Below are positions 30,699 to 53,812 of a DNA stretch of 64,000 nucleotides, one piece after another. The stretch comes from Candidatus Omnitrophota bacterium (GTDB lineage: Bacteria; Omnitrophota; Gorgyraeia; Duberdicusellales; 4484-171): positions 256,001 through 320,000 of the forward strand of contig JAIPGM010000002.1 of NCBI GenBank assembly GCA_021735655.1, given 5' to 3'. The notes beneath the pieces are model-generated. The model was not told the origin of the DNA and searched no databases. It saw nothing but the letters and a program-made list of their open reading frames with translations. Position numbers and translations under genes: made by a program. Positions within the stretch are counted from its first letter, which is position 1, and the number at the start of each line of letters is the position of its first letter.

Positions 30699-32016
30699 CA
30701 GATACTCTAGTATCCCGAGCTATACCTAAATCGGTAGGCGCCCGGCCTAAAGATTTAAGTAAATTAATAGTCTCAGTAATCTGATCATTAATCTCCGCTT
30801 CGCCATAGGCCTTATTAGGATAAATTGCATAATACTTTCGATATTTACGCGGAGTTAAATTGAGCATTACCGAATTTCCACCCGAAGACAATCCTTTCTT
30901 GCGTGCCTCTAAAGATAAGGTCTCAAAGGCTGTGGTTATAAGAATTTTAGCCGCTTCTGGATCGATTAAACGAGCCAAAGCAAGGTTTTTTAAAACTTCT
31001 TCTTCAGAAGGAGCTTTGCAATTGGCCAAGAGACTATTCGGGTGAGGCAAAAATGGCCCAAATGAGTACATCTCAGAGCCCAAAGCCTTAGTTAGATAAA
31101 TATCATTTATCGTATCTTGATTAGTTTGACCAGGCAAACCAATCAAGGCACCAGTCATAACTAAATACCCTAATTCATGGGCTTTTTTTAGATGATCCAG
31201 GCGACTATCTAAAGTTTGGCCAGGATGTAATTTCTCATAGATTTTAGGATTTGAAGTTTCAAAACGCATCAACAATGCTCTTGCCCCAGCCTGATAAAGC
31301 TTAAGCAATCCATCAAGCCCGACTTCACCAAAGCTTATACAAATCAAAACTGGAACCGTTTCTTTAATTTTTCTTATAATTTCCGCTAGATCATCTATGC
31401 TATAGTGTGGGTCTTCTCCCGATTGCAAAACTAAAGCCTGGAAACCATACTCTTTAACGGCACCAACTGCCGTCTCAATGATTTCCGCCGCTGACATTCG
31501 ATAACGCATAAGATTCTGGTTGTCAGCTGAAATACCACAATATTGACAACTCTGCTTACAAAAATTAGATATTTCGATTATCCCATGAATACAACATGAA
31601 TTTTTATGGTACTTTTGACGCAAAAAGTTAGCGGTTCGATAAAGAATATCTTGAGCCTCAGGCTTATCTAACTTAAGTAAATAAAATAACTCTTCTTTAC
31701 TCAATTGAATATTTTCTAAAGCTTTATCTAAAATAAGACTTAGCTGCCTGTCGATATTTTTTTTGCTAAGATCCAAGCGAGACAATCGTAAGTCCATATC
31801 CTGAAGTTCGAAAAAAAGCTCATTCCAAGCTGCCAAGGTCTCCTCAGCCTCCTTTGGGGAAACTTTTTTAATTACAAACCCGCCTTGAGCCGACACATAA
31901 TCACCGGGTTTGATATCATAAAACTCATTGATTGCTTTTTTTTCTTCACCAAAGTAATCAACCAGAACGGTTTTCCCAACTATTTCTTTTACCTTGCCAG
32001 GTATTGCATAACACAT
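30685..32016 (-). CDS. HypC/HupF-like domain fused to a HydE-family radical SAM enzyme
   Basis: The N-terminal ~75 aa begin MCYAIPGKVKEIVGK...GDYVSAQGGFVI...EAEETLAAWNELF, which carries the HypC signature (MC-x-IP, essential Cys2). The start is taken as the second Met so that Cys is residue 2. The remainder is a radical SAM with CKQSCQYC and HydE-like blocks (IIEISNFC, YRMSAAEI, LVLQSGEDP, GLPGQT, GPFLPHP, YAIYPNK). Confidence 0.8.
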   Translation of the reverse strand: MCYAIPGKVKEIVGKTVLVDYFGEEKKAINEFYDIKPGDYVSAQGGFVIKKVSPKEAEETLAAWNELFFELQDMDLRLSRLDLSKKNIDRQLSLILDKALENIQLSKEELFYLLKLDKPEAQDILYRTANFLRQKYHKNSCCIHGIIEISNFCKQSCQYCGISADNQNLMRYRMSAAEIIETAVGAVKEYGFQALVLQSGEDPHYSIDDLAEIIRKIKETVPVLICISFGEVGLDGLLKLYQAGARALLMRFETSNPKIYEKLHPGQTLDSRLDHLKKAHELGYLVMTGALIGLPGQTNQDTINDIYLTKALGSEMYSFGPFLPHPNSLLANCKAPSEEEVLKNLALARLIDPEAAKILITTAFETLSLEARKKGLSSGGNSVMLNLTPRKYRKYYAIYPNKAYGEAEINDQITETINLLKSLGRAPTDLGIARDTRVSDEKQ

Positions 32017-32030
32017 AACAAACTCCAATT

Positions 32031-32273
32031 TTACTCTACATCAAACGATAGCACCTGTATCACTGTTCCCGGGAAAAAAGTTAGCTCTAGCTCAGCCTTA
32101 GCACAAGGAGTCCCCTCAGCTAAAATTTTAAAGGTTTCTCTAAATGAATCCTCCTTGATCCCGTTCAGCTCACCGATTTTTATATGTATCTTAGACACTA
32201 CCTTTGAGCCTTCTTTTTCAGCGTGTTCACAAATTCCTTTAATCAATGGTTTTATGATATGGGTTTCGTGCAT
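32031..32273 (-). CDS. hypA: HypA-like nickel metallochaperone lacking the zinc-finger domain
   Basis: An 80-aa ORF starting with MHE, the HypA Ni-binding N-terminus, and ending in the HypA-like VIQVLSFDVE. The two CxxC pairs of canonical ~113-aa HypA are absent. Confidence 0.55.
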   Translation of the reverse strand: MHETHIIKPLIKGICEHAEKEGSKVVSKIHIKIGELNGIKEDSFRETFKILAEGTPCAKAELELTFFPGTVIQVLSFDVE

Positions 32274-32728
32274 GTTTTTACCTCAATAATTAAATTAGTT
32301 AATTCCTTTAATGTTTTAGCAACACTTTGTGAAATCTCATCACCAAACTCAAGAGTTTTCGGTTGCACCCCTAAAAGAAAAATATCAGCTTCGGTTTCTT
32401 TACCCAAAAAATCTAAAAACATCCTTGGTGATAAATCATGAGTAGTGAATCCCGATTTCACGATATCTTCCTTAACTAAAATCTCATAATCTCCTGGCTC
32501 TTTACCAAGATCAACAACATCAACTATTAAAATCGTATTTGGACGTTCTTTGGTTATTTTGCCAATATAGTTTTCTGGTGCTGAACCAACATCAATACAG
32601 GTTGCATCCACTTTCTGGTAAACAGTCTCAATGAACTTAGGACCGAAAGCATCGTCACCACGCATAATATTTCCTACCCCAACGATAACGACTTTCCCTT
32701 TAAAAACATTCCGAAAAATATTATTCAT
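32252..32728 (-). CDS. hycI: Hydrogenase maturation endopeptidase (HycI-type)
   Basis: A 158-aa ORF with VVIVGVGNIMRGDDAFGP and a conserved His/Asp pattern. Its short length fits the HycI subtype that serves group-4 hydrogenases. Confidence 0.8.
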   Translation of the reverse strand: MNNIFRNVFKGKVVIVGVGNIMRGDDAFGPKFIETVYQKVDATCIDVGSAPENYIGKITKERPNTILIVDVVDLGKEPGDYEILVKEDIVKSGFTTHDLSPRMFLDFLGKETEADIFLLGVQPKTLEFGDEISQSVAKTLKELTNLIIEVKTCTKPIS

Positions 32729-32768: not shown

Positions 32769-33380
32769 TTACTCAGCAGTAAGGGTGGTTTCACGTCGAC
32801 AGCGGGCGCATAGAATCTTAACTCGATCAGAACGCCCATCATCCCTTAAAGCTGAAACAATATTTTCATCTACAATACCAAGACTTTTAAGATGGGAAAG
32901 ATAAAGCGTAGGACTTGAGTAGGTAAGCTCACCTAATTTTTGAGAAATCCATTTAAGGTGATCTTTGCAGGCTATTACATCGCCGCAAACTTCACAAAGT
33001 TGTAGTTCTTTTTCTATTTGTTCTTGGGCTTGAGCGCGGTCAAAAAATGATAACTCCCAATCAGTAGATAACTTAATACCTTGCTTATCAGCCAAACAGG
33101 CTGCTTCACACTGTCCACAAAAAATACAAGTATCAGTATAATGAATCATCAGCCGCTTAGGATCATCTTTATTTTCAGTAATATCCTTATGAGAAATCGC
33201 TTCAACTGGGCAAACCTCTTCACAACCGCAACAACCAACACATTTTTGATCATTAAACTTCGGCTGACCGCGAAAGTTAGGATGAGCCACATGGGCCTCT
33301 TTAGGGAACTTTGACGTGTAAGGCCCCTTAATCAATGCCTTGATTGCTTCAACCAACTCTCTTAATTTTGGCAACTTCAT
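32769..33380 (-). CDS. 2x[4Fe-4S] ferredoxin subunit of group-4 hydrogenase (NuoI/HycF/MbhN-like) with a Cys-rich C-terminal extension
   Basis: CVGCCGCEEVCP and CIFCGQCEAAC are followed by a ~90-aa tail containing CEVCG...C and CARC. Confidence 0.8.
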   Translation of the reverse strand: MKLPKLRELVEAIKALIKGPYTSKFPKEAHVAHPNFRGQPKFNDQKCVGCCGCEEVCPVEAISHKDITENKDDPKRLMIHYTDTCIFCGQCEAACLADKQGIKLSTDWELSFFDRAQAQEQIEKELQLCEVCGDVIACKDHLKWISQKLGELTYSSPTLYLSHLKSLGIVDENIVSALRDDGRSDRVKILCARCRRETTLTAE

Positions 33381-33391
33381 AAATTTATCTT

Positions 33392-33474
33392 AAAAAAGAA
33401 GCGTAAAACGTAGTCTAGACTCAATATTCTTGAATCACCCGTGGCTAAAACTTTTCGTCTACGTTTACGCTTCT
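33392..33474 (-). terminator. Large hairpin + U6 between mrpG and the NuoI-like ferredoxin gene (intra-operon terminator/attenuator candidate)
   Basis: In the minus-strand RNA, GAAGCGUAAACGUAG, then ~45 nt, then CUACGUUUUACGCUUC, followed by UUUUUU. This is a ~15-bp stem with one bulge. The 5' arm overlaps the last codons of mrpG, and the downstream ferredoxin gene has no SD. Confidence 0.4.
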
Positions 33475-33803
33475 CCTTCCTTATCCTCTTTATATTTATC
33501 AATTACACTACCTTCCCAAAGTTTAACCCCGGCCCGATGGGCTCCTCTGGCTACAGCATGGGCAGCTACCGGCGAGGTTAACAAAAGAAAAACCGCACAA
33601 AGAAGCGCCTTAAAGCCCGCGGCAATAAAGCCAACAATTAAAAATGTTCCAAAAAGAATACTACAAGTTCCTAAAGTAACACACTTGGTGGCTGCTTGAA
33701 GACGATTATATACATCCGGAAGTCTTACCAAACCTAAGCAACCAACTATATCAAAAGCTAACCCACCGGAAATGAATATCAAACCAATAATATCACTCAT
33801 CAA
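33465..33803 (-). CDS. Mrp-type cation/H+ antiporter subunit G-like hydrogenase membrane subunit
   Basis: A 112-aa ORF with 3 TM helices and an MnhG/PhaG-like pattern. Confidence 0.75.
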   Translation of the reverse strand: MMSDIIGLIFISGGLAFDIVGCLGLVRLPDVYNRLQAATKCVTLGTCSILFGTFLIVGFIAAGFKALLCAVFLLLTSPVAAHAVARGAHRAGVKLWEGSVIDKYKEDKEGEA

Positions 33804-34188
33804 ACCCTCTTCCCTCTAAATATTTCGAAAGAGCTAAGGTGCTAATAAAACTTTGAAGCGCCCAAGCAATTCCAATATCCAGATACCAAGATCTTCCAGT
33901 CGAAATAGTTAAAACTGCACAAAGCCCCACAATCATAATCCCTAAAATATCAATCGCTACAATTCTGTCGGCTCCGGTAGGACCTTTAGCAATACGATAA
34001 AGCGCCAGTACACATCCTAGAATTAGAATGTAAAGTGCCCTCCCAACAAGACCACTATAGACGAGATTTTCAGGAAAAAGAAAACCAAAAGGCCTAAAAA
34101 TAATTAAGCCTAAAACAATACTAAGGGTAGTTGCTCCAAACAGCCAATTTAACATCTTTTTGCTTTCAGCTTTTTTCTTTTTAGCCAT
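33793..34188 (-). CDS. Mrp subunit F-like
   Basis: GPTGADRIVAIDIL is a MnhF hallmark. Confidence 0.75.
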   Translation of the reverse strand: MAKKKKAESKKMLNWLFGATTLSIVLGLIIFRPFGFLFPENLVYSGLVGRALYILILGCVLALYRIAKGPTGADRIVAIDILGIMIVGLCAVLTISTGRSWYLDIGIAWALQSFISTLALSKYLEGRGFDE

Positions 34189-34193
34189 AGTAA

Positions 34194-34691
34194 TTATTCA
34201 AATATTTTTCTTAATATTTTCTCAAACCGCTCAATAATAACTTTGGTAGCAGCTTCAGTCTGAGTTTCCTTCACGTCAATCCAATGTACATATAAAACAC
34301 CATCATCCTTGTCAATATCTACAGTTAAAGTTCCTGGAGTAAGTGTTATTGAATTCGCTAAAAATGTAAGCGCTGTATCTGTCTTAAGCGTAGTTTTCAC
34401 CTTAACAATGCCAGGTTTTATCGGTAAATTAGGATGTAGAATCCTGTAGGCAACATCAATATTTGCTTTAAAACACTCCCATAGAAATCTCGGAAGATAA
34501 TAAACAAAAAAATACCAGTATCTCAAAGGGTGCTTAAGGACATGAGGACGTTTTACAAACAAATCTCCGGTTAAAAAAGCACAAAGAGCGGCTGCGAATA
34601 CACCAATAGCTAGATGCTGCCAATCCGGTACCCAGTTCAATAAGCACCATACAACAAAGGCAACTAAAAATAAAACTATTTTTCTTTTCAT
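34194..34691 (-). CDS. Mrp subunit E-like
   Basis: The SITLTPGTL motif and two N-terminal TM helices. Confidence 0.75.
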   Translation of the reverse strand: MKRKIVLFLVAFVVWCLLNWVPDWQHLAIGVFAAALCAFLTGDLFVKRPHVLKHPLRYWYFFVYYLPRFLWECFKANIDVAYRILHPNLPIKPGIVKVKTTLKTDTALTFLANSITLTPGTLTVDIDKDDGVLYVHWIDVKETQTEAATKVIIERFEKILRKIFE

Positions 34692-36187
34692 TGGACTGCT
34701 CTGATAATATTTATTGTGTAGTTTTTTGTGCCAAGCAAAACCCCAGAGGCTTTAAGCAGGAATTGTTCTCTTATCCCCGGAAAAAATAAAAACCCACCTA
34801 AAAGGCAAACTAAAACTAAGATAATCATCGAAGCCTTCATGAAAGCAGGCACTTCAGTAATATTTTCCCACTGTTTCCTAAGATTTCCAAAAAATGCATA
34901 CTTCATAACCTTGGTAAAAGAAGCAAGGGTCAAAATACTAGCCAACACTGCCCAAAAACCATACCAATACTGGTTGGCCTGAACACAAGCAATAATAATA
35001 ATTAACTTGCTCCAAAAACCATTAAACGGCGGAATTCCAGCGATTGACATAGAAGCTCCAAAAGCAGTAGCTGAGGTAACTGGCATTCTTTGACTTAATC
35101 CCCCCATTTTTTTTAAATCTCTGGTTCCGGTTGTGTATTCAACAGCACCAGAATTTAAAAAAAGAAGAGATTTGAATATTGAGTGATTGAACAAATGGAA
35201 TAAGCCTCCGATTATACCTAAAGGAGTGCCCAAACCTATCCCCAAAATAACATAACCAATCTGGCTTATTGAATGATAGGCAAGCAAACGTTTCAAATCC
35301 CACTGTCCGATAGCCAAAAATACACCAACCACCATTGAGAGCGCACCGAGCGCCATCAAAATCATTGAAAGCTGACTATTCACACCTAAAATATTAAAGA
35401 ATATACGGCAAAGAGTGTATACTCCTAATGATTTAATCAATACCCCAGAAAGCATAGCTGATATTGGAGCTGGTGCTGAAGGATGAGCATCAGGAAGCCA
35501 GGCATGAAACGGCACCAAAGCTGCTTTTAAACCAAAACCCATAAGAAACAATACACTTACTAATATTAAAACATTTGGGCAGTCGGCTTGAGACAAAACT
35601 AAACCCATATCAGCCATATTTAGGGTTGAAGTGCAACTATATAGAAATACAATACCTAAAAGAATAAATAATGACCCTACGGTACTCATCAGGGCATATT
35701 TAAAGGCGGCTTCAAGCTCATGGCGTTCAGTTCCAAAAGCAACCAGAGCATAACTAGCAACAGAGGCAATCTCTAAAAAAACAAAAAGGTTAAATATGTC
35801 GCCAGTTATCAAAACCCCGTTCATCCCTCCCAACATCAATAGAAATAAGGTGTAAAATTTCCATTTAGCGGTGAACTTTTCCATGTAGTTAATTGAAAAA
35901 AGAGCTACACAAAAAGCAACTAAATTAACCGTAACTAACATAAAACTAGTTAGACCGTCTAAGACAAAAGTTATCCCGATTGGCGGCTTCCAAGATCCAG
36001 CAGCATAAACCAACACTCCATGCTCAGCCACAAGTTTTACACTGTAAAGCGACAAAAATAAAAGAGCTGTTGTGCATAAATTACCAATTAAATCCGGCAG
36101 CCATTTACTTTTTTTACCAAACAAAACAGTTAAAAAGGCACCCGAAAGACAAACTACAACAAAAATTGGTATAATATTAGAACTCAT
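34688..36187 (-). CDS. Mrp subunit D / NuoN-like proton-pumping membrane subunit (second copy)
   Basis: A 499-aa ORF with ~14 TM helices and the NuoL/M/N family core. Confidence 0.8.
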   Translation of the reverse strand: MSSNIIPIFVVVCLSGAFLTVLFGKKSKWLPDLIGNLCTTALLFLSLYSVKLVAEHGVLVYAAGSWKPPIGITFVLDGLTSFMLVTVNLVAFCVALFSINYMEKFTAKWKFYTLFLLMLGGMNGVLITGDIFNLFVFLEIASVASYALVAFGTERHELEAAFKYALMSTVGSLFILLGIVFLYSCTSTLNMADMGLVLSQADCPNVLILVSVLFLMGFGLKAALVPFHAWLPDAHPSAPAPISAMLSGVLIKSLGVYTLCRIFFNILGVNSQLSMILMALGALSMVVGVFLAIGQWDLKRLLAYHSISQIGYVILGIGLGTPLGIIGGLFHLFNHSIFKSLLFLNSGAVEYTTGTRDLKKMGGLSQRMPVTSATAFGASMSIAGIPPFNGFWSKLIIIIACVQANQYWYGFWAVLASILTLASFTKVMKYAFFGNLRKQWENITEVPAFMKASMIILVLVCLLGGFLFFPGIREQFLLKASGVLLGTKNYTINIIRAVQ

Positions 36188-36189
36188 AT

Positions 36190-36525
36190 CTATCCCCGCA
36201 ACTCTCTAATTTTAGTAATATCAAATGTTTGATACTTTTCATAAATTCGCATAGCGATTGCAATAAGCAAAGCTGTTGATGCCAAACCAATAACAATTGA
36301 AGTCAAAACTACTGCCTGAGGTAAGGCATCGACCATATTATTAATTGTTGTGTCTGGTGAATATATCGGAGAACGCCCCTTTATCCGATAAGCAACTAAG
36401 ATAAATAAAAGATTTACTGCATATTCAGCGATGATAACACCAATAATAATCTTAATTATATTACGTTTACGTAAAATACAATAAAGACCAACACAAAAAA
36501 GCACCAAACAAAGCAAGTAGATCAT
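36190..36525 (-). CDS. Mrp subunit C / NuoK-like
   Basis: A 111-aa ORF with 3 TM helices and VDALPQAVVLTSIVIGLA. Confidence 0.8.
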   Translation of the reverse strand: MIYLLCLVLFCVGLYCILRKRNIIKIIIGVIIAEYAVNLLFILVAYRIKGRSPIYSPDTTINNMVDALPQAVVLTSIVIGLASTALLIAIAMRIYEKYQTFDITKIRELRG

Positions 36526-36977
36526 TTTCCTTCGGTTCCTCCATCAAATTTAAGCAAAGTAAGGGCAATAAATATAGCAAACAAACCGGCCCCGACCTTT
36601 AAACTAATTGCAATATTACAAAGTGGAATAATCCCAGCTGAAAAAAGTCTAAACGGCTCCCCCTTAGGAAGAAAGTTTAAAAAGAAATACCCACCAGTAA
36701 ACCCCAAAAGGGCAATTGCTAAAAACATTATTGCTCCAAAACCTTCAAAAAAAGAAATAGCTTTCTTAGGCATTCTTTTTAAAGCCGCGTCTTTACCATA
36801 AGCAAGCATTAAATGAATAAAGCTGAGTGCAATAATTACCCCTCCGGCAAATCCTCCACCGGGGGAAACATGACCATGAGAAAGAATATAAATACCAAAA
36901 AGAAGTATTATGCCCACGGTAAGACGAGTAATTGTCTTAACGATTACCGACATTCCCTTTTCATGCTCTTTGCTCAT
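36522..36977 (-). CDS. Mrp subunit B-like (MnhB domain)
   Basis: The HGHVSPGGGFAGG MnhB motif. Confidence 0.8.
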   Translation of the reverse strand: MSKEHEKGMSVIVKTITRLTVGIILLFGIYILSHGHVSPGGGFAGGVIIALSFIHLMLAYGKDAALKRMPKKAISFFEGFGAIMFLAIALLGFTGGYFFLNFLPKGEPFRLFSAGIIPLCNIAISLKVGAGLFAIFIALTLLKFDGGTEGK

Positions 36978-37526
36978 TTATTCATCCTCTGGGTCTACTT
37001 TCTCATTAATTTTTTTACGCCCGACCCTGCGCACTAGGGTTAAAACACCTATTACTGCGGTAAATAAAACTGTAGCTTCACCTAAGGTGTCATAGGCTCG
37101 ATAATCAAGAATAACTGAAGCAACAATATTAGTTGCTCCGGTCTTAGCTAAGCCTTGCTTAAGATAAGTATCGGCCACCCGCATAATTGGATAACCAAAA
37201 CGTGGCAAATCACCAATTGCCTTATAGGCTGCAAATAAAAATAAACTAACAAAGCCTAAAATAATTGAGGTATTAAGTAACCATCGACCACTAGTTGAAA
37301 AAGGTAAATCTTTTTTTAAAGTTGCCCGAATCAAAATGATTAAACATAATATCTCAACTACTAATTGAGTAATTGCAACATCGGGAGCTTTGAGAATAAT
37401 AAACGTTATCGAAAGCCCTAGCCCTACGGCACCGACGGCAATAACTGAGGAAAGCAGATCTTTAAGCTCAACGGCGACAATTGCCCCAACAATCATAAAA
37501 ATTAATAAAATATATAGCTCAAACAT
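36978..37526 (-). CDS. MnhB-related membrane subunit (MbhD/E-like)
   Basis: A 182-aa polytopic ORF resembling the N-terminal MrpB/DUF4040 portion. Confidence 0.55.
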   Translation of the reverse strand: MFELYILLIFMIVGAIVAVELKDLLSSVIAVGAVGLGLSITFIILKAPDVAITQLVVEILCLIILIRATLKKDLPFSTSGRWLLNTSIILGFVSLFLFAAYKAIGDLPRFGYPIMRVADTYLKQGLAKTGATNIVASVILDYRAYDTLGEATVLFTAVIGVLTLVRRVGRKKINEKVDPEDE

Positions 37527-37533
37527 ATTTAAG

Positions 37534-39192
37534 TTACTTTAAAAGTATATAAAAAAGTATCCCCATACCTAAAAGACACCAGGACAAATAAGTAGATAAA
37601 ATGCCATTATGCAAATAACGCAAAATACTGTTAAAGCCAAAAGTAATTTTACTACCGACTTCATAAATATCGAATAATTTCTTATTAGCTAAACTATAGA
37701 TAACCTTTAACAGGCCCAACTCTTTGATTGTGTTATAAAAATCAGTTCCTGAAACTCTCATCTCGGGATATTTTTCAGTGCTTTCTCCGCCCATAAAAAT
37801 ATTAACCTGGCGACTCTTTGAAACTGTGCCCAAAAGATAAACTATTAGACCAATGACCATGCCAGCAAGAATCAAAGCCGTAGCTAAACTTGCATTCCAG
37901 ACTCCGGAAAACTCTACTGGCTGCCAAATAACCGGAAAGATAAAAAACTTAAGCGGAAGCCGGTAAGCAAATACACCAAAAACTACACATAGTAAGGCTA
38001 AAATTGCTCCCGGTATCCACATCGCTAGCCCAACCTCTTTTTTCTGATCTTTACTGAGTGCTTTTACGGTTGTGCTTTCTTGACCCAAAAATACAGCATG
38101 AACAAGTTTCATGAAACTTGCCAAAGTTAAGGCACTTCCAAACATGGCTGAAACTAACCAAACGACCCATAACCCACCACTGTTTTTAGCCGTCTCAATG
38201 ATACCCTGGTAGATCATCCATTTAGAAACAAAACCATTAAATGGCGGAACCCCAGAGATAGCAAATGAAGCAATCAAAAAAGTAATAAAAGTAATCGGCA
38301 TATATTTAGCAAGACCGCCAAGTTTATCTAAATTAGTAGTTTTGGTCCTTTTTTCTACAGAGCCACTGGTTAAAAATAAACAAGACTTATAAATCGCATT
38401 ATTCAGCATATGAAATAGTCCACCGGCAATACCGATAATTGTACCCGTACCAATACCTAAAATCATATAACCAACTTGACTTACCGCATGATAACCAAGG
38501 AGTCTCTTTAAGTCATGTTGGACTAAAGCCATCATAACCGCAGCTATAATAGTAAAGCTACCGATAAACATCAAAAATGTATTCATGCTTAAACCTAAAC
38601 GAAACATTTCCAAGGAAATTCTAATTAAAAGATATATTCCCAAAAGTTTGTCCAAAGAAGCAGGCAAATAAGCCGCAACCGGAGTTGGTGAGTCTTCAGC
38701 TGCGTCAGGAACCCAGGTATGAAAAGGCATAGCCCCGGCTTTAGCAAAAGCTCCGACCGCCAAACAAAGATAGGCAAAAGTAGCCACCTTAGAAGTCAAT
38801 GGTATTGATATTAAATCCATCTCGAATAAACCGGTAAGTTTCCAAATTAAGGCAACTCCCAAAAGCATTAAAGCATCGGTTCCACCAATTATAATAAATG
38901 CTTTCTTTGCCGTAGCTGAGCTATTATCCTTTTTACCAAAGCCAATTAAAAGATAAAGAAGCAACCCCAAGAATCCCCAGAAAACCATGAACAGAATTAA
39001 ATTATTGGCAAAAACCACACCCAAAGAAGCAATCAAAGTAAAAAAGATATAAAGGTAGTAACGTGAAATTCCACGTTGGGCACGCATGTACCCCATCGAA
39101 TATACAGTTACCAAAATAGAAAAAAACCAAATAAATATTCCGACAAATATCGACAAAGCATCAAATCTAAAATAATTCGCTAAAAAATTCAT
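37534..39192 (-). CDS. Mrp subunit D / NuoL-like antiporter membrane subunit (MbhH-like)
   Basis: A 552-aa ORF with the NuoL/M/N family core. Confidence 0.8.
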   Translation of the reverse strand: MNFLANYFRFDALSIFVGIFIWFFSILVTVYSMGYMRAQRGISRYYLYIFFTLIASLGVVFANNLILFMVFWGFLGLLLYLLIGFGKKDNSSATAKKAFIIIGGTDALMLLGVALIWKLTGLFEMDLISIPLTSKVATFAYLCLAVGAFAKAGAMPFHTWVPDAAEDSPTPVAAYLPASLDKLLGIYLLIRISLEMFRLGLSMNTFLMFIGSFTIIAAVMMALVQHDLKRLLGYHAVSQVGYMILGIGTGTIIGIAGGLFHMLNNAIYKSCLFLTSGSVEKRTKTTNLDKLGGLAKYMPITFITFLIASFAISGVPPFNGFVSKWMIYQGIIETAKNSGGLWVVWLVSAMFGSALTLASFMKLVHAVFLGQESTTVKALSKDQKKEVGLAMWIPGAILALLCVVFGVFAYRLPLKFFIFPVIWQPVEFSGVWNASLATALILAGMVIGLIVYLLGTVSKSRQVNIFMGGESTEKYPEMRVSGTDFYNTIKELGLLKVIYSLANKKLFDIYEVGSKITFGFNSILRYLHNGILSTYLSWCLLGMGILFYILLK

Positions 39193-40376
39193 TTTATGCC
39201 TAGTTTACTTTTTATCTTTTCGGTTTTACTTTGTGAAAGGCGAACTAAATCCTCACCGTTATATATTTTTTTACCCTTAGTGTTACGTACCGCCACTCTC
39301 TCAGTACAACAATAACAAGGATCAATGGACGCTAAAATTATCGTTGCATCAGAAATCGTCTCGCCAACCACAGTTGCCTTATAGGTCGGTAAATTCATAA
39401 AAGTAGGTGCTCTTACTTTGTGACGAGCCGGTCGATTGGTCCCATCGCTTTTCACATAATGAAAACATTCACCCCGCGGCGCCTCAATATGACCGATACC
39501 TTCACCTGAAGGAATACTTTTAATCTTAGCATCAATTTCTGTATCCGGAAGGTTTAAAAGGCAATACTTAACCATATCTATCGATTCAAAAGTCTCTAAA
39601 ATTCTTACTACCGCTTTATCGAAAACATCGCCATTTTTAGTCACAATCATATTCCAGTTAAACTGATCATATGCCCCATAAGGAGAATTTTTACGTAGAT
39701 CTCTGGCCACCCCCGAAGCCCGAGATACCGGACCGAGAGCACAAAAGTTAATTGCCTCATCCTTAGTGAGGATACCTATTCCTTTAGTCCTAGCATGTAA
39801 CACCGGGTCATCGATTACTGCCTTTTTAAGCATTTCAAGAGTCGGGATAATCGAATCTATCTTTTTTATCGCAAAAGGTATATCTTCTTTTTTTATGTCT
39901 CGCCGAACCCCTCCCGGCTTAAACATAGCATAGTTGTTGCGATTTCCCGAAAGTGCCTCCATAACATCAAGGATTTCCTCACGCAACTTCCAAGCCCACA
40001 TATAAACAGTATTGTAACCTAAAAAATGTCCGGCAAGACCCAACCATAAAAGATGTGAATGAATACGTTCTCCCTCAGCGATAATTGTTCGGATATATTT
40101 AGCCCTCATTGGCACTTCTAGAGGGATAACATCCTCAACTGCCCGAGTATAAGCATAAGGATGACTGGTTGAACAAATACCACAGATTCTCTCAATTACA
40201 AAAGTAGATTGGTCGAAGGTTTTTCGCTCAGAAAGCTTTTCAATGCCGCGATGGTTATAACCAATCTGAACATCGATATCAACAACTGTCTCCCCATCTA
40301 CAGTTAAGCTGAAAAACTCAGGCTCTTCCTGTAAAGGGTGATATGGTCCGATTGGAACTATAGTTCGTTTTCCCAT
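39189..40376 (-). CDS. [NiFe] hydrogenase large (catalytic) subunit, group 4 (NuoD/EchE/MbhL-like)
   Basis: The L1 motif RICGICSTSH (RxCGxCxxxH) is near the N-terminus. The L2 motif DPCYCCTER (DPCxxCxxR, the Arg form typical of group 4) is near the C-terminus. A ~30-aa tail follows, as expected for a HycI-processed precursor. Confidence 0.9.
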   Translation of the reverse strand: MGKRTIVPIGPYHPLQEEPEFFSLTVDGETVVDIDVQIGYNHRGIEKLSERKTFDQSTFVIERICGICSTSHPYAYTRAVEDVIPLEVPMRAKYIRTIIAEGERIHSHLLWLGLAGHFLGYNTVYMWAWKLREEILDVMEALSGNRNNYAMFKPGGVRRDIKKEDIPFAIKKIDSIIPTLEMLKKAVIDDPVLHARTKGIGILTKDEAINFCALGPVSRASGVARDLRKNSPYGAYDQFNWNMIVTKNGDVFDKAVVRILETFESIDMVKYCLLNLPDTEIDAKIKSIPSGEGIGHIEAPRGECFHYVKSDGTNRPARHKVRAPTFMNLPTYKATVVGETISDATIILASIDPCYCCTERVAVRNTKGKKIYNGEDLVRLSQSKTEKIKSKLGIK

Positions 40377-40849
40377 TATAATCCTCGATCTCTAATTGAT
40401 GAGTCGTCCCACTCTTGATAATCGCGTCTCAAAGGATATACACCTTGTGGCCACTCATCGGGCAAAAGCAACCGCTTCAACTCTGGATGACCGCGAAAAT
40501 TGACTCCTAACATTTCAGCTATCTCACGTTCAATCCAATTAGCACCTTCAAATATTGGGGCTAATGAATCTATTTCTAATTTGCTCTTATCCAACTTAAC
40601 CCGGAAAGAAACTACTAAATTTATATCTTCAAAGGTAAAATGATAAAGAATTTCTATATGTTTAAATGTATCTACTCCCGAAGCAATATTGAATCTGGCC
40701 CCCAAATTTTTAAAAACATAGGTCGCAACCTTAACAATCGCCTGAGGTTTAATCTCAATATAGACCCGAGTTAAGGTCTTATCGAAAATATCTAAAATAT
40801 CTTCGTCGAATCTTTTCTTTAAATCTTTAATAACTTCGCTTCTGGTCAT
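40376..40849 (-). CDS. NuoC-like (30-kDa) hydrogenase subunit
   Basis: A 157-aa ORF with a NuoC/HycE-N domain pattern. Confidence 0.75.
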   Translation of the reverse strand: MTRSEVIKDLKKRFDEDILDIFDKTLTRVYIEIKPQAIVKVATYVFKNLGARFNIASGVDTFKHIEILYHFTFEDINLVVSFRVKLDKSKLEIDSLAPIFEGANWIEREIAEMLGVNFRGHPELKRLLLPDEWPQGVYPLRRDYQEWDDSSIRDRGL

Positions 40850-41286
40850 TTTGCTTGAGGGTTTCCAGCCCCACTTAATTTATCGATTAACTTAACAACC
40901 CCGGCAATAATCGCCTCTGGTTTCGGCGGGCACCCAGGTATATATACGTCTACCGGAATAATTTTATCAACTGGCAAAGGACAGTTATAGCTATGAATAA
41001 ACATACCTCGCGACAAAGAGCACTCACCAACAGCCACTACTACACAAGGCTTCGGCATCTGCTCATATACTTCTTTAATCCGAGGAATGCACTTTCGATT
41101 AGCAGAACCAGTTACTAAAAGCACGTCAGCATGTTTTATGCTTCCGGCTAAAAGCATGCCAAACCTTTCGATATCAAAGCGTGGGGTTAAACAATCCAAT
41201 ATTTCAATATCGCAATTATTGCAACTACCAGTTGAAAGATGAAAAACCCATGGTGACTTGAGTAATGCTTTAAGTTTTATGCTCAT
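40846..41286 (-). CDS. NuoB-like [NiFe] hydrogenase small subunit (proximal 4Fe-4S)
   Basis: GSCNNCDIE ... VGECS ... PGCPPKPEA. The start is trimmed to the Met of MSIKLKALL to avoid overlap with the upstream gene. Confidence 0.85.
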   Translation of the reverse strand: MSIKLKALLKSPWVFHLSTGSCNNCDIEILDCLTPRFDIERFGMLLAGSIKHADVLLVTGSANRKCIPRIKEVYEQMPKPCVVVAVGECSLSRGMFIHSYNCPLPVDKIIPVDVYIPGCPPKPEAIIAGVVKLIDKLSGAGNPQAK

Positions 41287-42206
41287 AAACCCTTTAAGGC
41301 TAAAATAACTGCGATTATAGCAATAATCAACATTGGCCCCCAAAAAAATCTTATTGCCTGATCAATTCTAACTCTAGGATTAGTATTACGAATAACGGTG
41401 ATCAAGGCAACCAAACCAACATACCTCAACACCCCGTATATAAGATTTAAGCCGTTTAGTCTTAACCCACCAATAAAAGTAATCATTATAAAGAAAGGCA
41501 AGACAAAGAACAACATATTTTTCATAAGTTTGTATACCGCAAGCGGGGCTCCCGAATACTCAACTAACGGTCCACCAATAATTTCGGTCTCAGCTTCAGG
41601 AATATCAAAAGGCACTAAGGCTAGTTTTGCCTGTACACACATAATAATTACAATAAAAGCCAAAAACCCCGACCAGCTTCCTAAGATTACGCCATTTTGA
41701 GCCTGATAAGTGATAATTTCACCTAAACGCAAGCTAAACCCGCTTTGAATAACCGGAACTAAAACCGCTAGAATAAATGGCAATTCATAACTTAAAACTA
41801 ATTTCATTTCTCGTGATGCACCAATACTAGCTAAAGGATTGCCTGAAGCAAAGCCTCCGATAATTATGCTTATTGAAGGAATAGCCAATAAATAAACTAC
41901 AACAACAATATCACCAACAAAGGTCCTCAGCGGATTAAAATTATTAAACCAAAGCACCGTAGACACAACAATAACACTCCCTAAACCAATAATCGGAGCG
42001 CTCAAAAAACTAAACTGAGAAGCGCCTTTAGGAACCAAAGTCTCTTTTCCAAGAAGCTTCACCAAATCAATAAGCGGCTGTAGGATTGGCGGCCCAACGC
42101 GATACTGAACTCGAGCGGTAACTTTACGGTCAACCCAGCTAGTTAACAAACCAATAATGGCGGTTAACAAGAATCCGAAAATAAAAAGATAAACTAAATA
42201 AATCAT
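41283..42206 (-). CDS. NuoH/HycD/EchB-like integral membrane hydrogenase subunit
   Basis: DRKVTARVQYRVGPP is the NuoH motif. The ORF has 8 TM helices. Confidence 0.85.
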   Translation of the reverse strand: MIYLVYLFIFGFLLTAIIGLLTSWVDRKVTARVQYRVGPPILQPLIDLVKLLGKETLVPKGASQFSFLSAPIIGLGSVIVVSTVLWFNNFNPLRTFVGDIVVVVYLLAIPSISIIIGGFASGNPLASIGASREMKLVLSYELPFILAVLVPVIQSGFSLRLGEIITYQAQNGVILGSWSGFLAFIVIIMCVQAKLALVPFDIPEAETEIIGGPLVEYSGAPLAVYKLMKNMLFFVLPFFIMITFIGGLRLNGLNLIYGVLRYVGLVALITVIRNTNPRVRIDQAIRFFWGPMLIIAIIAVILALKGL

Positions 42207-42769
42207 ACTTTTTCTCTATCCCAATGAGTAGAATGTACTATTAAATTGTCACCAACTAAAAATGAATCTTTGGTTAATAAATCATCCGAATTTACTAATT
42301 TTAATGCTCCGTATGGGCATGATTTTATGCAAAGCGGTTCATTTTTTTTATCTCTTCGATCAAAACAAAAATCACAATTATGAATTAAATAAGGCACATG
42401 CTCAGGATAAATGGTTCCGTAAGGGCAAGCATGAGAACAAGTTTTGCAACTTACGCAACGCATATTATGCCTAATCAAAAGGTTGTCTTTTTCGGTTTGT
42501 TGTTCCAAAGCCTCAAATGGGCAAGCATTAACACAGTGAGGTTCTTGGCATCTACGACAAACCAAAGCATAAGTTGCCAATTCAGCTACTGAAACTATTC
42601 CATTATTTATCGGATCTTGAGTGTGGTAAAAATAGCTGCACTCTAACTTACATTTTTTGCATTCTCCGGCCGCACAAATATCAAGATCAACAAAAAGCCG
42701 TTGACCACTATCAGATTTAGCTTCGGTATTTAATTTTCCTTGATGTAGTTGTTCGGCACTTGTATCCAT
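42203..42769 (-). CDS. Poly-[4Fe-4S] ferredoxin-like electron-transfer subunit (HycB-like)
   Basis: Four Cys clusters (C..C..C...C patterns). The protein is 188 aa. Confidence 0.7.
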   Translation of the reverse strand: MDTSAEQLHQGKLNTEAKSDSGQRLFVDLDICAAGECKKCKLECSYFYHTQDPINNGIVSVAELATYALVCRRCQEPHCVNACPFEALEQQTEKDNLLIRHNMRCVSCKTCSHACPYGTIYPEHVPYLIHNCDFCFDRRDKKNEPLCIKSCPYGALKLVNSDDLLTKDSFLVGDNLIVHSTHWDREKV

Positions 42770-42776
42770 AATAGCT

Positions 42777-43601
42777 CTAATCCCAAATATTAGGAAAATT
42801 CTTTATTTTGTCGTAAGTAAACACTGGTCCATCTTTGCAGGCATAATAAGTCCCTAGCCGACAATGACCGCATTTACCAATTCCACAAGACATATTTTTT
42901 TCCATTGAAAGATAGATATTCTTCTCCTTAAAACCCAACTCAAGCAATTTTTTAGTAGAAAACTTCATGGCGATTGGCGGCCCGCAAACAATAGCTATTG
43001 CCTCAGGGCAATTCATATCTAAATCATCCAAAATTGTAGTAACAACACCTACGTTACCTTTCCAATCAGGGCTAGCTTTATCAACAGTAAGTCTTAAATT
43101 TAAATCATCTCGCTTTGCCCAGCCGGCTATCTCAGTTTTATAGAGTAGCTCCTGTGAGGTTTTACAGCCACCCCGAAAAGACAGCTTCTTAAACTCCCCG
43201 CTTCGGGCAAAAAACTCATACATCAAACTACGCAAAGGAGCAAATCCACATCCACCACCGACGACAACGATTTCCTTACCTTTAAATTCATCAATCGGGT
43301 AACCAGTCCCAAAAGGGCCTCTCACTCCAATCAAATCGCCTTTTTTAAGCTGATGAACTTTATCGGTAACCTTGCCAACTTTCATTACCGTGACTTCCAT
43401 TACATCTCTCACTGATGGCCTCGATGAAGGTGTAAATGGCGCCTCACCCACGCCGGGAACAGTTAATTCGATAAATTGACCGGTCTCAAAACCCAAAGGC
43501 TCTTTAGGACGAAAACGTATGGTTTTAATCGTTGGCGTTTCGGTTATTACATCAAGAACTTCGGCCTCAATCGATCTGTAAGGATTCTCGATTTTATGCA
43601 T
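42777..43601 (-). CDS. FAD/NAD(P)-binding oxidoreductase with a C-terminal [2Fe-2S] (sulfhydrogenase gamma / PyrK / AsrB-like)
   Basis: A ferredoxin-NADP reductase-like fold (RFRPK, GQFIEL, VVVGGGCGFAPL) and a C-terminal CGIGKCGHCRLG...C. Confidence 0.75.
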   Translation of the reverse strand: MHKIENPYRSIEAEVLDVITETPTIKTIRFRPKEPLGFETGQFIELTVPGVGEAPFTPSSRPSVRDVMEVTVMKVGKVTDKVHQLKKGDLIGVRGPFGTGYPIDEFKGKEIVVVGGGCGFAPLRSLMYEFFARSGEFKKLSFRGGCKTSQELLYKTEIAGWAKRDDLNLRLTVDKASPDWKGNVGVVTTILDDLDMNCPEAIAIVCGPPIAMKFSTKKLLELGFKEKNIYLSMEKNMSCGIGKCGHCRLGTYYACKDGPVFTYDKIKNFPNIWD

Positions 43602-44619
43602 TATCCACCAACTTCTTTAAGACTTTTCGAATATCAATTTTAGCCGGGCAAGCTGTTATACAACGGCCACAGCCGGTACAAGCATACTCAGCGGCCACCT
43701 TGGGAAAAAAATCAAATTTTTTCTCAAACCTATTACGCAATCTCATCCAAAGCCTCTCTCGAGGATTGGCTCCGCCAGCAACCCGAGCAAAATCTTTTAT
43801 CATACAAGAATCCCAAATGCGTAAACGCTCCATCTTGTCTTTATCTTTTTGATCATACAAAAGAAAACAATGGCAGGTTGGGCAAATTGCATTACAGGCT
43901 CCACATTCAACGCAAGTTTTTGCTTCGTCTTCCCAAATTTTAGACTCATAGTTTTTCTGAACCACATCTTTGAAGCTGCTTTGGTCAGGAACGGTATTTT
44001 TACTTAGGTTAGCGTTAGCTTCTCCAGTTATTTTTTCACGCTTCTTATCTCTGGTAACAACTAGATCTTCTCGAGTTTGACGAAAAAGAAGAGTATATTG
44101 CTTCAGAATACTCTCACCTTTATCGGATCCGCTTTCAACAACAAAGCCATCATCAACCACAGAAAGATTTAGATCAAAATTATCTTTAGGATACGGTTTT
44201 AGACCTAAAGCCGCACAAAAGCAAGTATCAATTACGCAAGTGCAATCAGCTGAAATAATAAGGCTATCCTGACGTAACTTTAAATAAAAAGGATCCTGAT
44301 AATCGGGATTATCAAAAACATAGTCTTGAATTTTAAAACCTTTCAGATCACAAGCCTTGACTCCGACAATAGCAAAAGGCTTACTCGGAGACTGCGGAAG
44401 ATCCGGACTAAAACCAGAAGCTACCTTCTGACGAGCCTTCAAAAAAAATGATTTTACCGGCTCAAAAGCCCTTACCTCGCCAACAACGAATTCACTAGTC
44501 GAGCTATCGAACTTATCGTAAAACCGCTGCTGACCTTTTTTGACCGGAACAAATACCTGATAATCTTTATTTAGGTTTTCAAGAAATTTAGAAAAATTAT
44601 CGGAAGAGATATAATACAT
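43594..44619 (-). CDS. [4Fe-4S]-binding sulfhydrogenase beta / AsrA-like subunit
   Basis: CVECGACNAICPTCHC and CTGCGRCITACP. The ~340-aa length is typical of HydB/AsrA. Confidence 0.7.
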   Translation of the reverse strand: MYYISSDNFSKFLENLNKDYQVFVPVKKGQQRFYDKFDSSTSEFVVGEVRAFEPVKSFFLKARQKVASGFSPDLPQSPSKPFAIVGVKACDLKGFKIQDYVFDNPDYQDPFYLKLRQDSLIISADCTCVIDTCFCAALGLKPYPKDNFDLNLSVVDDGFVVESGSDKGESILKQYTLLFRQTREDLVVTRDKKREKITGEANANLSKNTVPDQSSFKDVVQKNYESKIWEDEAKTCVECGACNAICPTCHCFLLYDQKDKDKMERLRIWDSCMIKDFARVAGGANPRERLWMRLRNRFEKKFDFFPKVAAEYACTGCGRCITACPAKIDIRKVLKKLVDNA

Positions 44620-44663: not shown

Positions 44664-44688
44664 ACTTTGTGATTTTATTCACAAAGTA
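44664..44688. promoter_or_regulatory. Rex operator (TTGTGAtTTTATTCACAA) upstream of the hydrogenase operon
   Basis: A perfect palindrome ACTTTGTGA-TTTTAT-TCACAAAGT. The 18-bp core TTGTGATTTTATTCACAA matches the Rex consensus TTGTGAAnnnnTTCACAA at 17 of 18 positions. It lies 45-65 bp upstream of the first hydrogenase-operon gene, and rex is encoded in the same operon. Confidence 0.6.
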
Positions 44689-44748: not shown

Positions 44749-45042
44749 TTAGGTAGGTTTTTTAATATCTACATAATTCGTTAGGGTCGGGTTAAACTTA
44801 GCCAGAAAAAGCATTATCCCCCAAATTATAATCGTAGCTAAAGCAATAACTACCCCCAACAGCAAATCTCTGCCTATATTTTCAGTAACCAGAAATAGTT
44901 CACGATTCCAAAGGTGATCGATAAAACCAAATAAGGCACCACCGTAAAACAATAGGGTTAACCACCAAATTTTTACATTTTTACTTTTATACCAAGCTAA
45001 CGATGTTGCGGCAGCGCCCAGTAAAGATACAGCATAACACAT
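44749..45042 (-). CDS. Small hypothetical membrane protein
   Basis: A 97-aa ORF with 3 predicted TM helices and a GGAGGTG SD. Confidence 0.4.
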   Translation of the reverse strand: MCYAVSLLGAAATSLAWYKSKNVKIWWLTLLFYGGALFGFIDHLWNRELFLVTENIGRDLLLGVVIALATIIIWGIMLFLAKFNPTLTNYVDIKKPT

Positions 45043-45137: not shown

Positions 45138-46169
45138 CTAAGTTTTATTTAAAATCAAGAGCGATTTTTCAACTACTTCTTGAGGGGTAATTTTTCCAAG
45201 GCAAATAAAATCTTCTTTACAATTATGAGCAAAACAAACCGAACAACCAGAATCCTTATGAAGGTAAGTTGAATTTTCTCCTAAAGGTTTCCAGCGTTTT
45301 GGAGAAAGACCAGAATCCTTTCGACCAAAGATAGAAATTACTGGTGTATTAACGCTAGCGGCAATGTGTACTGGTCCAGAATCATTAGAAATAAAAAGAC
45401 TTGCCCGTTGCAGAATGGCCCCAATTTCAGAAATATTAAGTCTTCCACGAAAATCAATAACCTTATTTTGCTTAGTAATCTTTTGCGCAAAGCTGGCTTC
45501 TTTTTTCGAAGTTATAACTACCACCTTAATCTTTAGTTTATCCTGTAGAATTTTGATAACTTCTGAAAAATAATCTTGCGGCCAACGCTTAGAAGGACAC
45601 GACGCTGAAGGATGAATTACAATAAACTCATCCTCTACTCCCAAATCGGCTTCTTTAAGTAATTTATCTACCCTCTTTTTCGCCTCAACAGATACTGGAA
45701 AAAACAACTCCTTATCTTTTACCGGTATCTTTAAATAACGCAAAATATCTAAGGTGTATTCTAACTCATGCTTCTGGCCTTCTTGTTTAGTATGCGGTAA
45801 CCTTTCACTAAGTGACCAATCCATATTTTTGGCCCAACCAATACGTCTAGGAATAGCAGCAAAAAAAGACACCAGATGCATTCGATTCGTCGGATGCAAA
45901 ATTAAAGCTAAATCAAATTTCTTTTTTTTCAGCTCCCAAGCAAATTTTATCGTTCCCCAAATACTTTTATGCTTACCATATTTATCATAAACAATAATTT
46001 CATCCAGATAAGGATTTCCGATCAAAACTTCTTGCGTGTAGGGACGGCAGATAAAAGCAATGTGCGCCTTCGGATAGTAAAGACGTAAGTTTTTAATTAC
46101 TGGAGTCGAAAGAATAACATCACCCAATCGATCGGTTCTTGCGATTAGTATCTTTTTGGGTATACCCAT
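45138..46169 (-). CDS. GT9 glycosyltransferase (ADP-heptose:LPS heptosyltransferase family)
   Basis: An N-terminal ILIARTDRLGDVILSTP and a C-terminal GPVHIAAS-type motif. Confidence 0.8.
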   Translation of the reverse strand: MGIPKKILIARTDRLGDVILSTPVIKNLRLYYPKAHIAFICRPYTQEVLIGNPYLDEIIVYDKYGKHKSIWGTIKFAWELKKKKFDLALILHPTNRMHLVSFFAAIPRRIGWAKNMDWSLSERLPHTKQEGQKHELEYTLDILRYLKIPVKDKELFFPVSVEAKKRVDKLLKEADLGVEDEFIVIHPSASCPSKRWPQDYFSEVIKILQDKLKIKVVVITSKKEASFAQKITKQNKVIDFRGRLNISEIGAILQRASLFISNDSGPVHIAASVNTPVISIFGRKDSGLSPKRWKPLGENSTYLHKDSGCSVCFAHNCKEDFICLGKITPQEVVEKSLLILNKT

Positions 46170-46172
46170 TAG

Positions 46173-48105: not shown

Positions 48106-48116
48106 TATTGCAATAC

Positions 48117-53810: not shown

Positions 53811-53812
53811 AA

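Follow-up and report, generated by a model that had tools for sequence, protein, structure and literature searches.

A Hun-type respiratory hydrogenase operon and its adjoining putative maturation genes in a Candidatus Omnitrophota genome

The architecture in which a group-4 [NiFe] hydrogenase is encoded together with Mrp-type genes and AsrAB-like subunits is not new and has already been described from metagenomes. Glass et al. 2021 (bioRxiv 10.1101/536078) gave the name 'Hun' to a supercomplex of 16 subunits, whose HunAB proteins are similar to AsrAB and whose large subunit, HunG, carries CGIC/CYCC motifs, is called group 4g by HydDB but is distant from it, and forms a clade of its own apart from the characterised group-4 enzymes; the carriers named were Atribacteria, Omnitrophica, Elusimicrobia, Bacteroidetes, Firmicutes and Kosmotoga. 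Matheus Carnevali et al. (PMC6349859) reported an 'enigmatic' hydrogenase of Saganbacteria encoded with cooF, asrA, asrB and Mrp genes, Meheust et al. (10.1101/765248) used the term 'Mbh-Mrp-oxidoreductase type', and Williams et al. (PMC8542988) listed the Omnitrophota enzyme as group 4g and Mrp-linked. Related clusters are on record from Saganbacteria and Elusimicrobia; the name Hun is used by no other paper in the literature searched. Here we describe a stretch of 64 kb (the window) of a Candidatus Omnitrophota genome, contig JAIPGM010000002.1, in which the locus at positions 32769-44619 is a Hun-type respiratory hydrogenase operon.

The operon shares with the published Hun its 16 genes, their order, the CGIC/CYCC motifs and the phyla in which it occurs, and nothing structural differs. 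Since the system has been described, the novelty of the locus is low, and the novelty implied by an earlier reading of this DNA made from the letters alone (the sequence-only reading) did not survive the comparison. The observation on which that reading was built is nevertheless correct and its interpretation, which is partly supported, is reasonable, with H2:NAD(P)+ coupling and ion translocation as its putative part. The window differs from published loci in its surroundings: (i) it lacks the molybdopterin protein present in some Hun and Saganbacteria loci, (ii) rex is located downstream of the operon, not upstream, and (iii) a hypC::hydE-like gene and hydG replace hypF-hypC-hypD.

An open reading frame (ORF) check combined with Pfam and NCBIfam searches revealed that 16 consecutive minus-strand ORFs fill positions 32769-44619, where the sequence-only reading had placed them, and the domain models agree with the content it had proposed, namely a HydB/AsrA-like subunit, a gamma/PyrK-like subunit, a ferredoxin, NuoH/B/C/D-type subunits, Mrp subunits and a NuoI-like protein. 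The operon is real and intact, and consists of a membrane-bound [NiFe] hydrogenase, a module of the sodium/proton antiporter type and an input module of the NAD(P)H type. All genes from hunA to hydG described below lie on the minus strand.

The input module is encoded by the first three genes. The product of hunA (43594-44619), a sulfhydrogenase-beta/AsrA-like Fe-S subunit of 341 aa (Fer4_22, PF17179, E 4e-31), can be aligned over its whole length with SHI beta of P. furiosus (9nez_B, E 1.8e-42), and 15 of its cysteines are invariant in 58 orthologs; the NCBIfam scores were 188 bits for ShyB, 158 for HydB and 135 for AsrA (cutoff 323). HunB (42777-43601, 274 aa) is sulfhydrogenase-gamma/AsrB/PyrK-like, aligns with SHI gamma (9nez_C, E 5e-56), contains the FAD_binding_6 (PF00970), NAD_binding_1 (PF00175) and DHODB_Fe-S_bind domains, and was ranked by the NCBIfam models as AsrB (243 bits, cutoff 289), the gamma-subunit model HydG (188 bits) and ShyC, in this order. 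Conserved in 64 orthologs are G115-GG-x-G-x-AP122, C206-GPP and the [2Fe-2S] cysteines C239, C244, C247 and C255, with conservation of GGG-x-G-x-AP and CGPP reaching at least 90-98%. HunB has the FAD domain, the GxGxxP nucleotide loop and the CGP motif of an FNR/PyrK-type flavoprotein, and its conservation pattern is what would be expected of a working NAD(P)H-binding protein of this kind. HunC (42203-42769) is a CooF/HycB/DmsB-type ferredoxin (Fer4_11, PF13247, E 4e-16) with 16 cysteines, each at least 99% conserved in 69 orthologs, which is sufficient for four [4Fe-4S] clusters. Taking all subunits into account, the NAD(P)-binding and FAD-domain motifs and every Fe-S cysteine are conserved in 57-81 orthologs. 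NAD(P)H as the predicted partner of Hun is well supported by these sequences.

The hydrogenase core follows. The gene hunD (41283-42206) encodes a NuoH/MbhM-like membrane subunit (PF00146, E 4e-66), hunE (40846-41286) a NuoB-like small subunit with the proximal [4Fe-4S] cluster (PF01058, E 2e-28) and hunF (40376-40849) a NuoC-like protein (PF00329, E 3e-28). Translation of hunE most likely starts at the ATG at 41286, which forms an ATGA overlap with hunD, rather than at the TTG at 41343; in the ORF as called, conserved sequence sets in only at M20, and C41, C44, C108 and C138 are invariant. The [NiFe] large subunit HunG (39189-40376, 395 aa; PF00346, PF00374) carries an L1 motif, R63-ICGICSTS-H72 (40161-40190), and an L2 motif, D352-PCYCCTE-R360 (39297-39323), so that the RxCGxCxxxH and DPCxxCxxR patterns noticed in the sequence-only reading are present and intact as RICGICSTSH and DPCYCCTER. 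Residues C65, C68, C354, C356 and C357 are conserved in 81 sequences (C356 in 99%). The protein ends in a 35-aa C-terminal extension, and a gene for a HycI-type protease is located just 3' of the operon. Of the solved structures, MbhL was the best match of HunG (6cfw_L, E 6e-90, 43.6% identity), and HycE (7z0s_E) matched with E 2e-81 and 39% identity. HunG scored 284-322 bits on NuoD models, and the SHI/SHII alpha models were matched only at the N-terminal Ni motif.

Eight genes, hunH to hunO, form an Mrp-type set that provides a complete MrpA-G with two Proton_antipo_M subunits. HunH (37534-39192, 552 aa) is an MrpA/NuoL-type antiporter-like protein (Proton_antipo_M, E 2e-61) which lacks about 70 N-terminal residues, its NCBIfam matches starting at profile positions ~70-78. 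HunI (36978-37526) has the MbhD and MbhE domains (PF13244, PF20501), i.e. the C-terminal part of MrpA, and corresponds to MrpA residues ~600-790. The set continues with hunJ (36522-36977; MrpB/MnhB, PF04039, E 5e-26), hunK (36190-36525; MrpC/NuoK, PF00420, E 8e-25), hunL (34688-36187), which encodes an MrpD-type antiporter of 499 aa (Proton_antipo_M, E 5e-69; 353-393 bits on MrpD models), hunM (34194-34691; MrpE, PF01899, E 2e-49), hunN (33793-34188; MrpF, PF04066, E 2e-17) and hunO (33465-33803; MrpG, PF03334, E 3e-24). The count of eight Mrp-like subunits given in the sequence-only reading was therefore right, but its two MrpD copies are in fact one MrpA/NuoL-type and one MrpD-type protein.

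The last gene, hunP (32769-33380), encodes a NuoI/HycF-like protein of 203 aa with two [4Fe-4S] clusters (Fer4_7, Fer4), whose best model is that of the iron-sulfur subunit of formate hydrogenlyase (FHL; HycF type, E 2e-24). Its eight cluster cysteines are conserved, as are C129, C132, C191 and C194. The latter four lie within a C-terminal extension of about 85 residues, which could be an extra metal site without counterpart in MbhN/NuoI.

The beta and gamma genes had been taken as part of the operon, and the junctions bear this out. Adjacent hun genes overlap or are separated by at most 11 nt, with the sole exception of hunO/hunP (84 nt); hunA and hunB, the first two genes behind the Rex-box region, share 8 nt, hunC starts after a gap of 7 nt behind hunB, and hunC and hunD share 4 nt. 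Examination of the junctions and a terminator scan revealed no terminator after hunB and no space for a promoter or terminator behind hunA/hunB. Terminator-like matches occurred at chance level (18 found, 15.3 expected), and the match at 44689-44662 is the Rex palindrome itself. A separate hunA/hunB transcription unit is thus ruled out by the overlaps, the short gaps and the chance-level terminator matches. On the 3' side the unit extends, with the same tight spacing, to approximately position 28560, through hycI, hypA, hypC::hydE-like, rex and hydG. Upstream of hunA we detected no convincing sigma-70 promoter, only a -35 hexamer TTGACA (44726-44721) with a poor -10.

The same arrangement recurs in distant lineages. 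In a scan of one genome per species, relatives of HunG were found in more than 560 species-level genomes, and the best 80 of them, 80-90% identical, were used for comparison of loci by tblastn with all window proteins. These 80 come from Omnitrophota, Atribacterota, Fermentibacteria/Aegiribacteria, Hydrogenedentota, Spirochaetota, Elusimicrobiota and Sumerlaeota. Within the limits of the contigs, all 80 loci keep the hunA-P order, and both hunA and hunB are present in each of the 80 whose contig extends to them, which answers in the affirmative the question, raised with the sequence-only reading, of whether these genes are conserved in orthologous operons. In three Spirochaetota loci (L040, L074 and L075) hunP directly follows hunG, without an in-line Mrp module; in L074 the only Mrp-type genes detected are homologs of hunH, hunI and hunJ, located upstream on the opposite strand. 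It was also observed that HunG is 80-90% identical across at least seven phyla, whereas HunA is only 48-74% identical in those loci, which suggests that the catalytic core is under unusually strong constraint or has recently spread by horizontal transfer.

Among 1.84 billion cluster representatives, members of the HunG family were 55-58% identical to the window protein and all others at most 45%; gene contexts were examined for seven of the representatives. That of a Kosmotoga sp. (large subunit 56-58% identical) belongs to a hun operon with all 16 genes, behind which lie hycI, hypF, hypC and hypD, and further relatives carry the names of Ignavibacterium album, Petrotogales, Bacillota, KSB1 and Marinimicrobia. 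A 43%-identical relative (L087, 10001-11239) is encoded with beta, gamma, ferredoxin, NuoH/B/C and NuoI genes next to an rnf operon and has no Mrp genes; since it keeps beta, gamma and ferredoxin, the input module appears to be older and more constant than the antiporter. Other relatives of 41-45% identity are of the Mbh or FHL type and lack beta and gamma. In a neighbor-joining (NJ) tree, which is rough and carries no bootstrap values, and for which MbhL and HycE sequences were recovered from PDB alignments, the window HunG groups with Hun sequences, including that of Kosmotoga; the Mrp-less beta/gamma enzyme is its neighbour, and MbhL and HycE fall elsewhere. In this tree the large subunit is not nested in ferredoxin-dependent Mbh or in FHL. 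Neither of the two outcomes that would have refuted the sequence-only reading, a separate beta/gamma transcription unit and clustering with ordinary ferredoxin-dependent Mbh enzymes that always carry these subunits, was observed. A further cluster, L092 (3698-4816 and flanks), resembles Hun in gene order and in its complete set of Mrp genes. Its 'large subunit', however, gives no NiFe-hydrogenase Pfam match, and its upstream input gene encodes a different, unannotated protein of 412 aa; it may be a non-hydrogenase (Ehr/Mbx-like) offshoot.

The operon was also compared with characterised complexes. With P. furiosus Mbh (group 4d, 6cfw) it has in common the NuoB/C/D/H/I-type module and the Mrp-derived membrane subunits. 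In Mbh, however, the Mrp genes come first, there is one antiporter-like subunit, no beta/gamma or CooF-like input is encoded and the donor is ferredoxin, whereas in Hun a three-protein input module comes first and a full MrpA-G set with two antiporter-like subunits follows the large subunit; the two form separate clades in the rough NJ tree, which is without support values. The window operon thus shows none of the group 4d marks (Mrp first, single antiporter-like subunit, no input module). With SHI/SHII (group 3b, 9nez) it shares beta and gamma subunits whose homology extends throughout the proteins and takes in the FAD/NAD(P) domain as well as the [2Fe-2S] motif and Fe-S cysteines, although the window proteins score far below the SHI/SHII equivalog cutoffs. 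SHI and SHII contain a group-3 alpha/delta pair in place of the NuoD/NuoB-type group-4 pair of a membrane complex, and the NuoD-like large subunit sets the window apart from a soluble alpha-delta-beta-gamma tetramer with a group-3 large subunit.

The modular order of input, HycB/CooF-like protein, HycF/NuoI-like protein and hydrogenase is common to Hun, FHL (7z0s) and the Mrp-linked formate or CO complexes of Thermococcus (groups 4a/4b), and Mrp is shared with 4b. The window, in contrast, contains neither formate dehydrogenase (FDH) nor CO dehydrogenase (CODH), has NuoC and NuoD as separate genes and shares 39% identity with HycE; domain scans of the operon and its flanks revealed no molybdopterin or CODH domain, so a formate- or CO-linked 4a/4b enzyme does not describe it. 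In its architecture, the Hun layout of input module, hydrogenase and Mrp resembles that of the formate- and CO-linked complexes, with beta/gamma standing for FDH or CODH. Homologs of SHI beta/gamma in related group-4b clusters have been linked to NADPH (PMC13582414, 2026); unlike the window, those clusters also encode an Fdh-like protein and HyfC/E-like subunits. Finally, complex I (Nuo) shares with Hun the succession of an NAD(P)H flavoprotein, Fe-S proteins, a NuoB/D/H/I core and antiporter-like subunits, and the same ion-coupling logic; it differs in its NuoEFG input and quinone acceptor, where Hun has a PyrK/SHI-gamma-type input and H+ at the NiFe site.

The sequence-only reading also proposed that the operon is under Rex control. 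A predicted Rex operator, TTGTGAATAAAATCACAA, is located at 44667-44684 on the minus strand, 47 nt upstream of the hunA ATG, and forms the core of a palindrome of 28 nt. The box departs from the Rex consensus used, TTGTGAANNNNTTCACAA, at one position and is the only site in the 64 kb with at most one mismatch (0.02 expected by chance). A rex gene is found in the same transcription unit (30057-30698; 258 bits on Rex models against a cutoff of 126), overlapping the hypC::hydE-like gene by 14 nt and abutting hydG, so that both features of a predicted Rex regulon member, a rex gene and an 18-bp operator of the type TTGTGAAnnnnTTCACAA, are present. Loci with the window arrangement keep this box 45-80 nt upstream of hunA, and where rex is the first gene, ahead of hunA, Rex-like boxes occur upstream of rex in 18 of 19 loci. 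Because boxes and rex recur in both gene arrangements, Rex control of hun, as predicted from these sites, is conserved.

Taken together, the data make it probable, though by no means certain, that Hun is a reversible hydrogenase linked to NAD(P)H and coupled to ion movement. In the mechanism that we propose, NAD(P)H would exchange hydride with HunB (FAD, [2Fe-2S]) and electrons would pass through HunA, the four clusters of HunC, HunP and HunE to the NiFe site of HunG, where H2 would be formed from protons; the path would be reversible. Movement of H+ or Na+ would be coupled to the redox step at the HunD/HunE/HunG interface and via HunH-HunO. The potentials of the NAD+/NADH (-320 mV) and H+/H2 (-414 mV) couples put H2 formation from NADH about 18 kJ/mol uphill when H2 is at 1 bar; the reaction becomes slightly downhill only below approximately 10 Pa. 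An ion gradient would therefore either pay for the evolution of H2 from NADH or be generated where H2 is very low or is being taken up. Rex represses at low NADH; expression of hun is therefore to be expected when NADH accumulates, which favours a role as a valve for NADH disposal.

Several points weigh against NAD(P)H as the donor. Rex regulons elsewhere include ferredoxin-dependent hydrogenases, so Rex control does not identify the electron donor and, contrary to the sequence-only reading, cannot serve as a pointer to NAD(P)H. HunA and HunB missed every NCBIfam equivalog cutoff and therefore represent a subfamily of their own. HunP and HunC could accept electrons from ferredoxin, as MbhN does, and no biochemical study of any Hun complex was found in the literature. 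Ferredoxin is, moreover, the donor proposed for Hun in its original description (10.1101/536078), in contrast to the NAD(P)H favoured here; for related clusters ferredoxin, "ferredoxin or NADH" and NADPH have all been put forward.

According to this published proposal, Hun would be a ferredoxin-dependent, Mbh-like enzyme in which reduced ferredoxin delivers electrons to HunABC or HunP for the evolution of H2 and the build-up of an ion gradient, HunB being no more than an electron-transfer flavoprotein. The same assumption is contained in the group-4g/Mbh annotations of Omnitrophota (PMC8542988), and it agrees with the homology of HunP to the ferredoxin-accepting MbhN/HycF and with MbhL being the best PDB match of HunG. 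However, HunB keeps its NAD(P)-binding signature across 64 orthologs, the specific homology of HunA and HunB is to a pair of subunits that oxidises NADPH, and a dedicated FAD/NAD(P) subunit that is always co-encoded is unnecessary for the oxidation of ferredoxin; the Mbh-type relatives of 41-44% identity are wholly without beta and gamma. We consider this explanation unlikely.

The long Fe-S wiring (16 cysteines in HunC and 15 in HunA) and the ferredoxin-type docking module of HunP with its extra four-cysteine extension would also suit a dual-donor or branched complex, in which ferredoxin and NAD(P)H both deliver electrons to the Fe-S chain or both receive them from it. Such a complex would transfer electrons between ferredoxin and NAD(P)+ with ion coupling and a proton/H2 valve, or would confurcate the two donors to H2. 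Branched, bifurcation-like wiring has been proposed for related clusters in which an Fdh-like subunit is encoded as well (PMC13582414), and a molybdopterin protein is encoded between HunB and HunC in some Hun loci (10.1101/536078, PMC6349859). The window operon, in contrast, has no third catalytic subunit, the PyrK/SHI-gamma-type FAD is no known bifurcating flavin, and nothing in the sequence requires two donors, which makes such a branched complex improbable as well.

A further alternative concerns the direction of the reaction: H2 uptake could be the physiological one, with H2 reducing NAD(P)+ and ions being pumped out, so that lithotrophic or acetogenic growth is provided with reductant and energy. 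Under standard conditions the reduction of NAD+ by H2 yields ~18 kJ/mol, which would pay for about one ion; the Wood-Ljungdahl pathway is encoded in some Omnitrophota with this hydrogenase (PMC8542988), and SHI is called reversible in the title of the paper on its structure. Against this, Rex derepression at high NADH predicts expression for the removal of NADH, and in published reconstructions the carriers are mostly fermenters (10.1101/536078, PMC8542988). Uptake as the physiological direction is therefore distinctly unlikely in our judgement. A module of HunAB reducing sulfur, polysulfide or sulfite within an H2- or ion-coupled sulfur reductase, for which speak the top NCBIfam score of HunB (AsrB, 243 bits), the match of HunA to AsrA (135 bits) and a mention of possible sulfur-compound reduction (PMC6469976), is rejected as highly improbable because domain scans of the operon and the 64-kb window revealed no AsrC-like siroheme subunit to complete an AsrABC set and because the NiFe site is intact, in contrast to the sulfur-reducing MBS complex, and the Asr cutoffs were not reached.

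If Hun does couple NAD(P)H oxidation to proton reduction with the help of an ion gradient, it would constitute a third route from NADH to H2, beside confurcating [FeFe] enzymes and soluble Hox/SH enzymes, and would in effect be a complex I with protons replacing quinone. This would help to explain how fermenters of many uncultured phyla keep their redox balance in H2-scavenged sediments. Since cultured carriers exist (Kosmotoga, Ignavibacterium album), the question of the donor is directly testable.

The genes downstream of hunP provide a more novel lead than Hun itself. The HycI-type endopeptidase (32252-32728; PF01750, E 1e-17), for the C-terminal extension of HunG, is followed by a hypA gene (32031-32273) whose 80-aa product matches PF01155 at profile positions 1-70 of 112; it has the nickel-binding MHE N-terminus and lacks the Zn CxxC...CxxC domain. 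Next is a fusion gene (30685-32016; start ATG 32016, MCYAIPG...) encoding a HypC::HydE-like protein of 443 aa (PF01455, PF04055) with the radical-SAM motif CKQSCQYC, which scored 43 bits on the HypC model and 248.9 bits on the HydE model (cutoff 254.6). After rex lies a gene for a HydG-type radical-SAM tyrosine lyase (28560-30056; TIGR03955, 448 bits, cutoff 312). Domain scans detected no hypB, hypD, hypE, hypF, hydF or hydA within the 64-kb window. A short HypA of this kind (also L007, 18216-18458) is kept in both clades of Hun loci, with no hypB nearby.

The fusion occurs in at least 120 protein clusters, and all of those named by organism belong to Omnitrophota or to an unclassified bacterium. 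In the 42 loci compared it adjoins, wherever the flanks suffice, a [NiFe] operon of the Hun, group-3b-like or Tat type, usually in the order hycI, hypA, fusion, (rex), hydG, and hypD and hypF are found in none of these 42 loci. Two contigs with the fusion hold a second, more distant hydG/hydE pair beside an [FeFe] hydrogenase. In Hun loci the fusion and hypF-hypC-hypD occupy the same slot and are mutually exclusive: among the 28 loci with at least 2.5 kb after hypA, 9 carry the fusion, 13 carry hypF(C-terminal)-hypC-hypD, none carries both and 6 carry neither. The hypF of Hun loci with rex upstream (L007, 18460-19521) codes for the C-terminal part alone, the Kae1-like carbamoyltransferase (353 aa), without the acylphosphatase, zinc-finger and YrdC domains, whereas the HypF of Kosmotoga (L086) is full-length, with 747 aa.

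The HydG proteins associated with the fusion are themselves a variant. The canonical C-terminal form is CTACYR, which is also that of the other HydG type in these loci; the window HydG has CTAGYRCGRTGEC...C in its place, and the form CTAGYRCGRTGxC is kept in 11 loci and the window. This pattern points to a putative contribution of radical-SAM chemistry to [NiFe] cofactor synthesis. It is possible, and we propose it only tentatively, that the HypC::HydE-like protein and the variant HydG supply the Fe(CN)2CO centre wholly or in part, with radical-SAM chemistry borrowed from [FeFe] maturation, a reading that would hold alongside that of an NAD(P)H-linked, ion-coupled Hun. If it is true, anaerobes would gain a tyrosine-derived source of CO (and CN) ligands. 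A 2025 review named the anaerobic origin of the CO ligand the most pressing open question of the field, and the HypC::HydE-like protein with HydG is a concrete candidate for the source of the ligand.

The flanks of the window are occupied by genes for lipopolysaccharide (LPS)-core glycosyltransferases and by housekeeping genes. A long LPS-core run (45138-56129, minus strand) lies directly upstream of hun and includes three GT9 heptosyltransferases, GT4 enzymes, a GT4-GT9 fusion, a lipid A acyltransferase fusion, LpxK and a Kdo transferase. Between this run and the Rex box is a gene for a 97-aa membrane protein (44749-45042), which has no Pfam match and is kept in loci of the window type. Elsewhere in the window, 6930-10139 (minus strand) encodes an EF-G-like protein of 1069 aa with about 380 extra N-terminal residues ahead of the GTPase domain.

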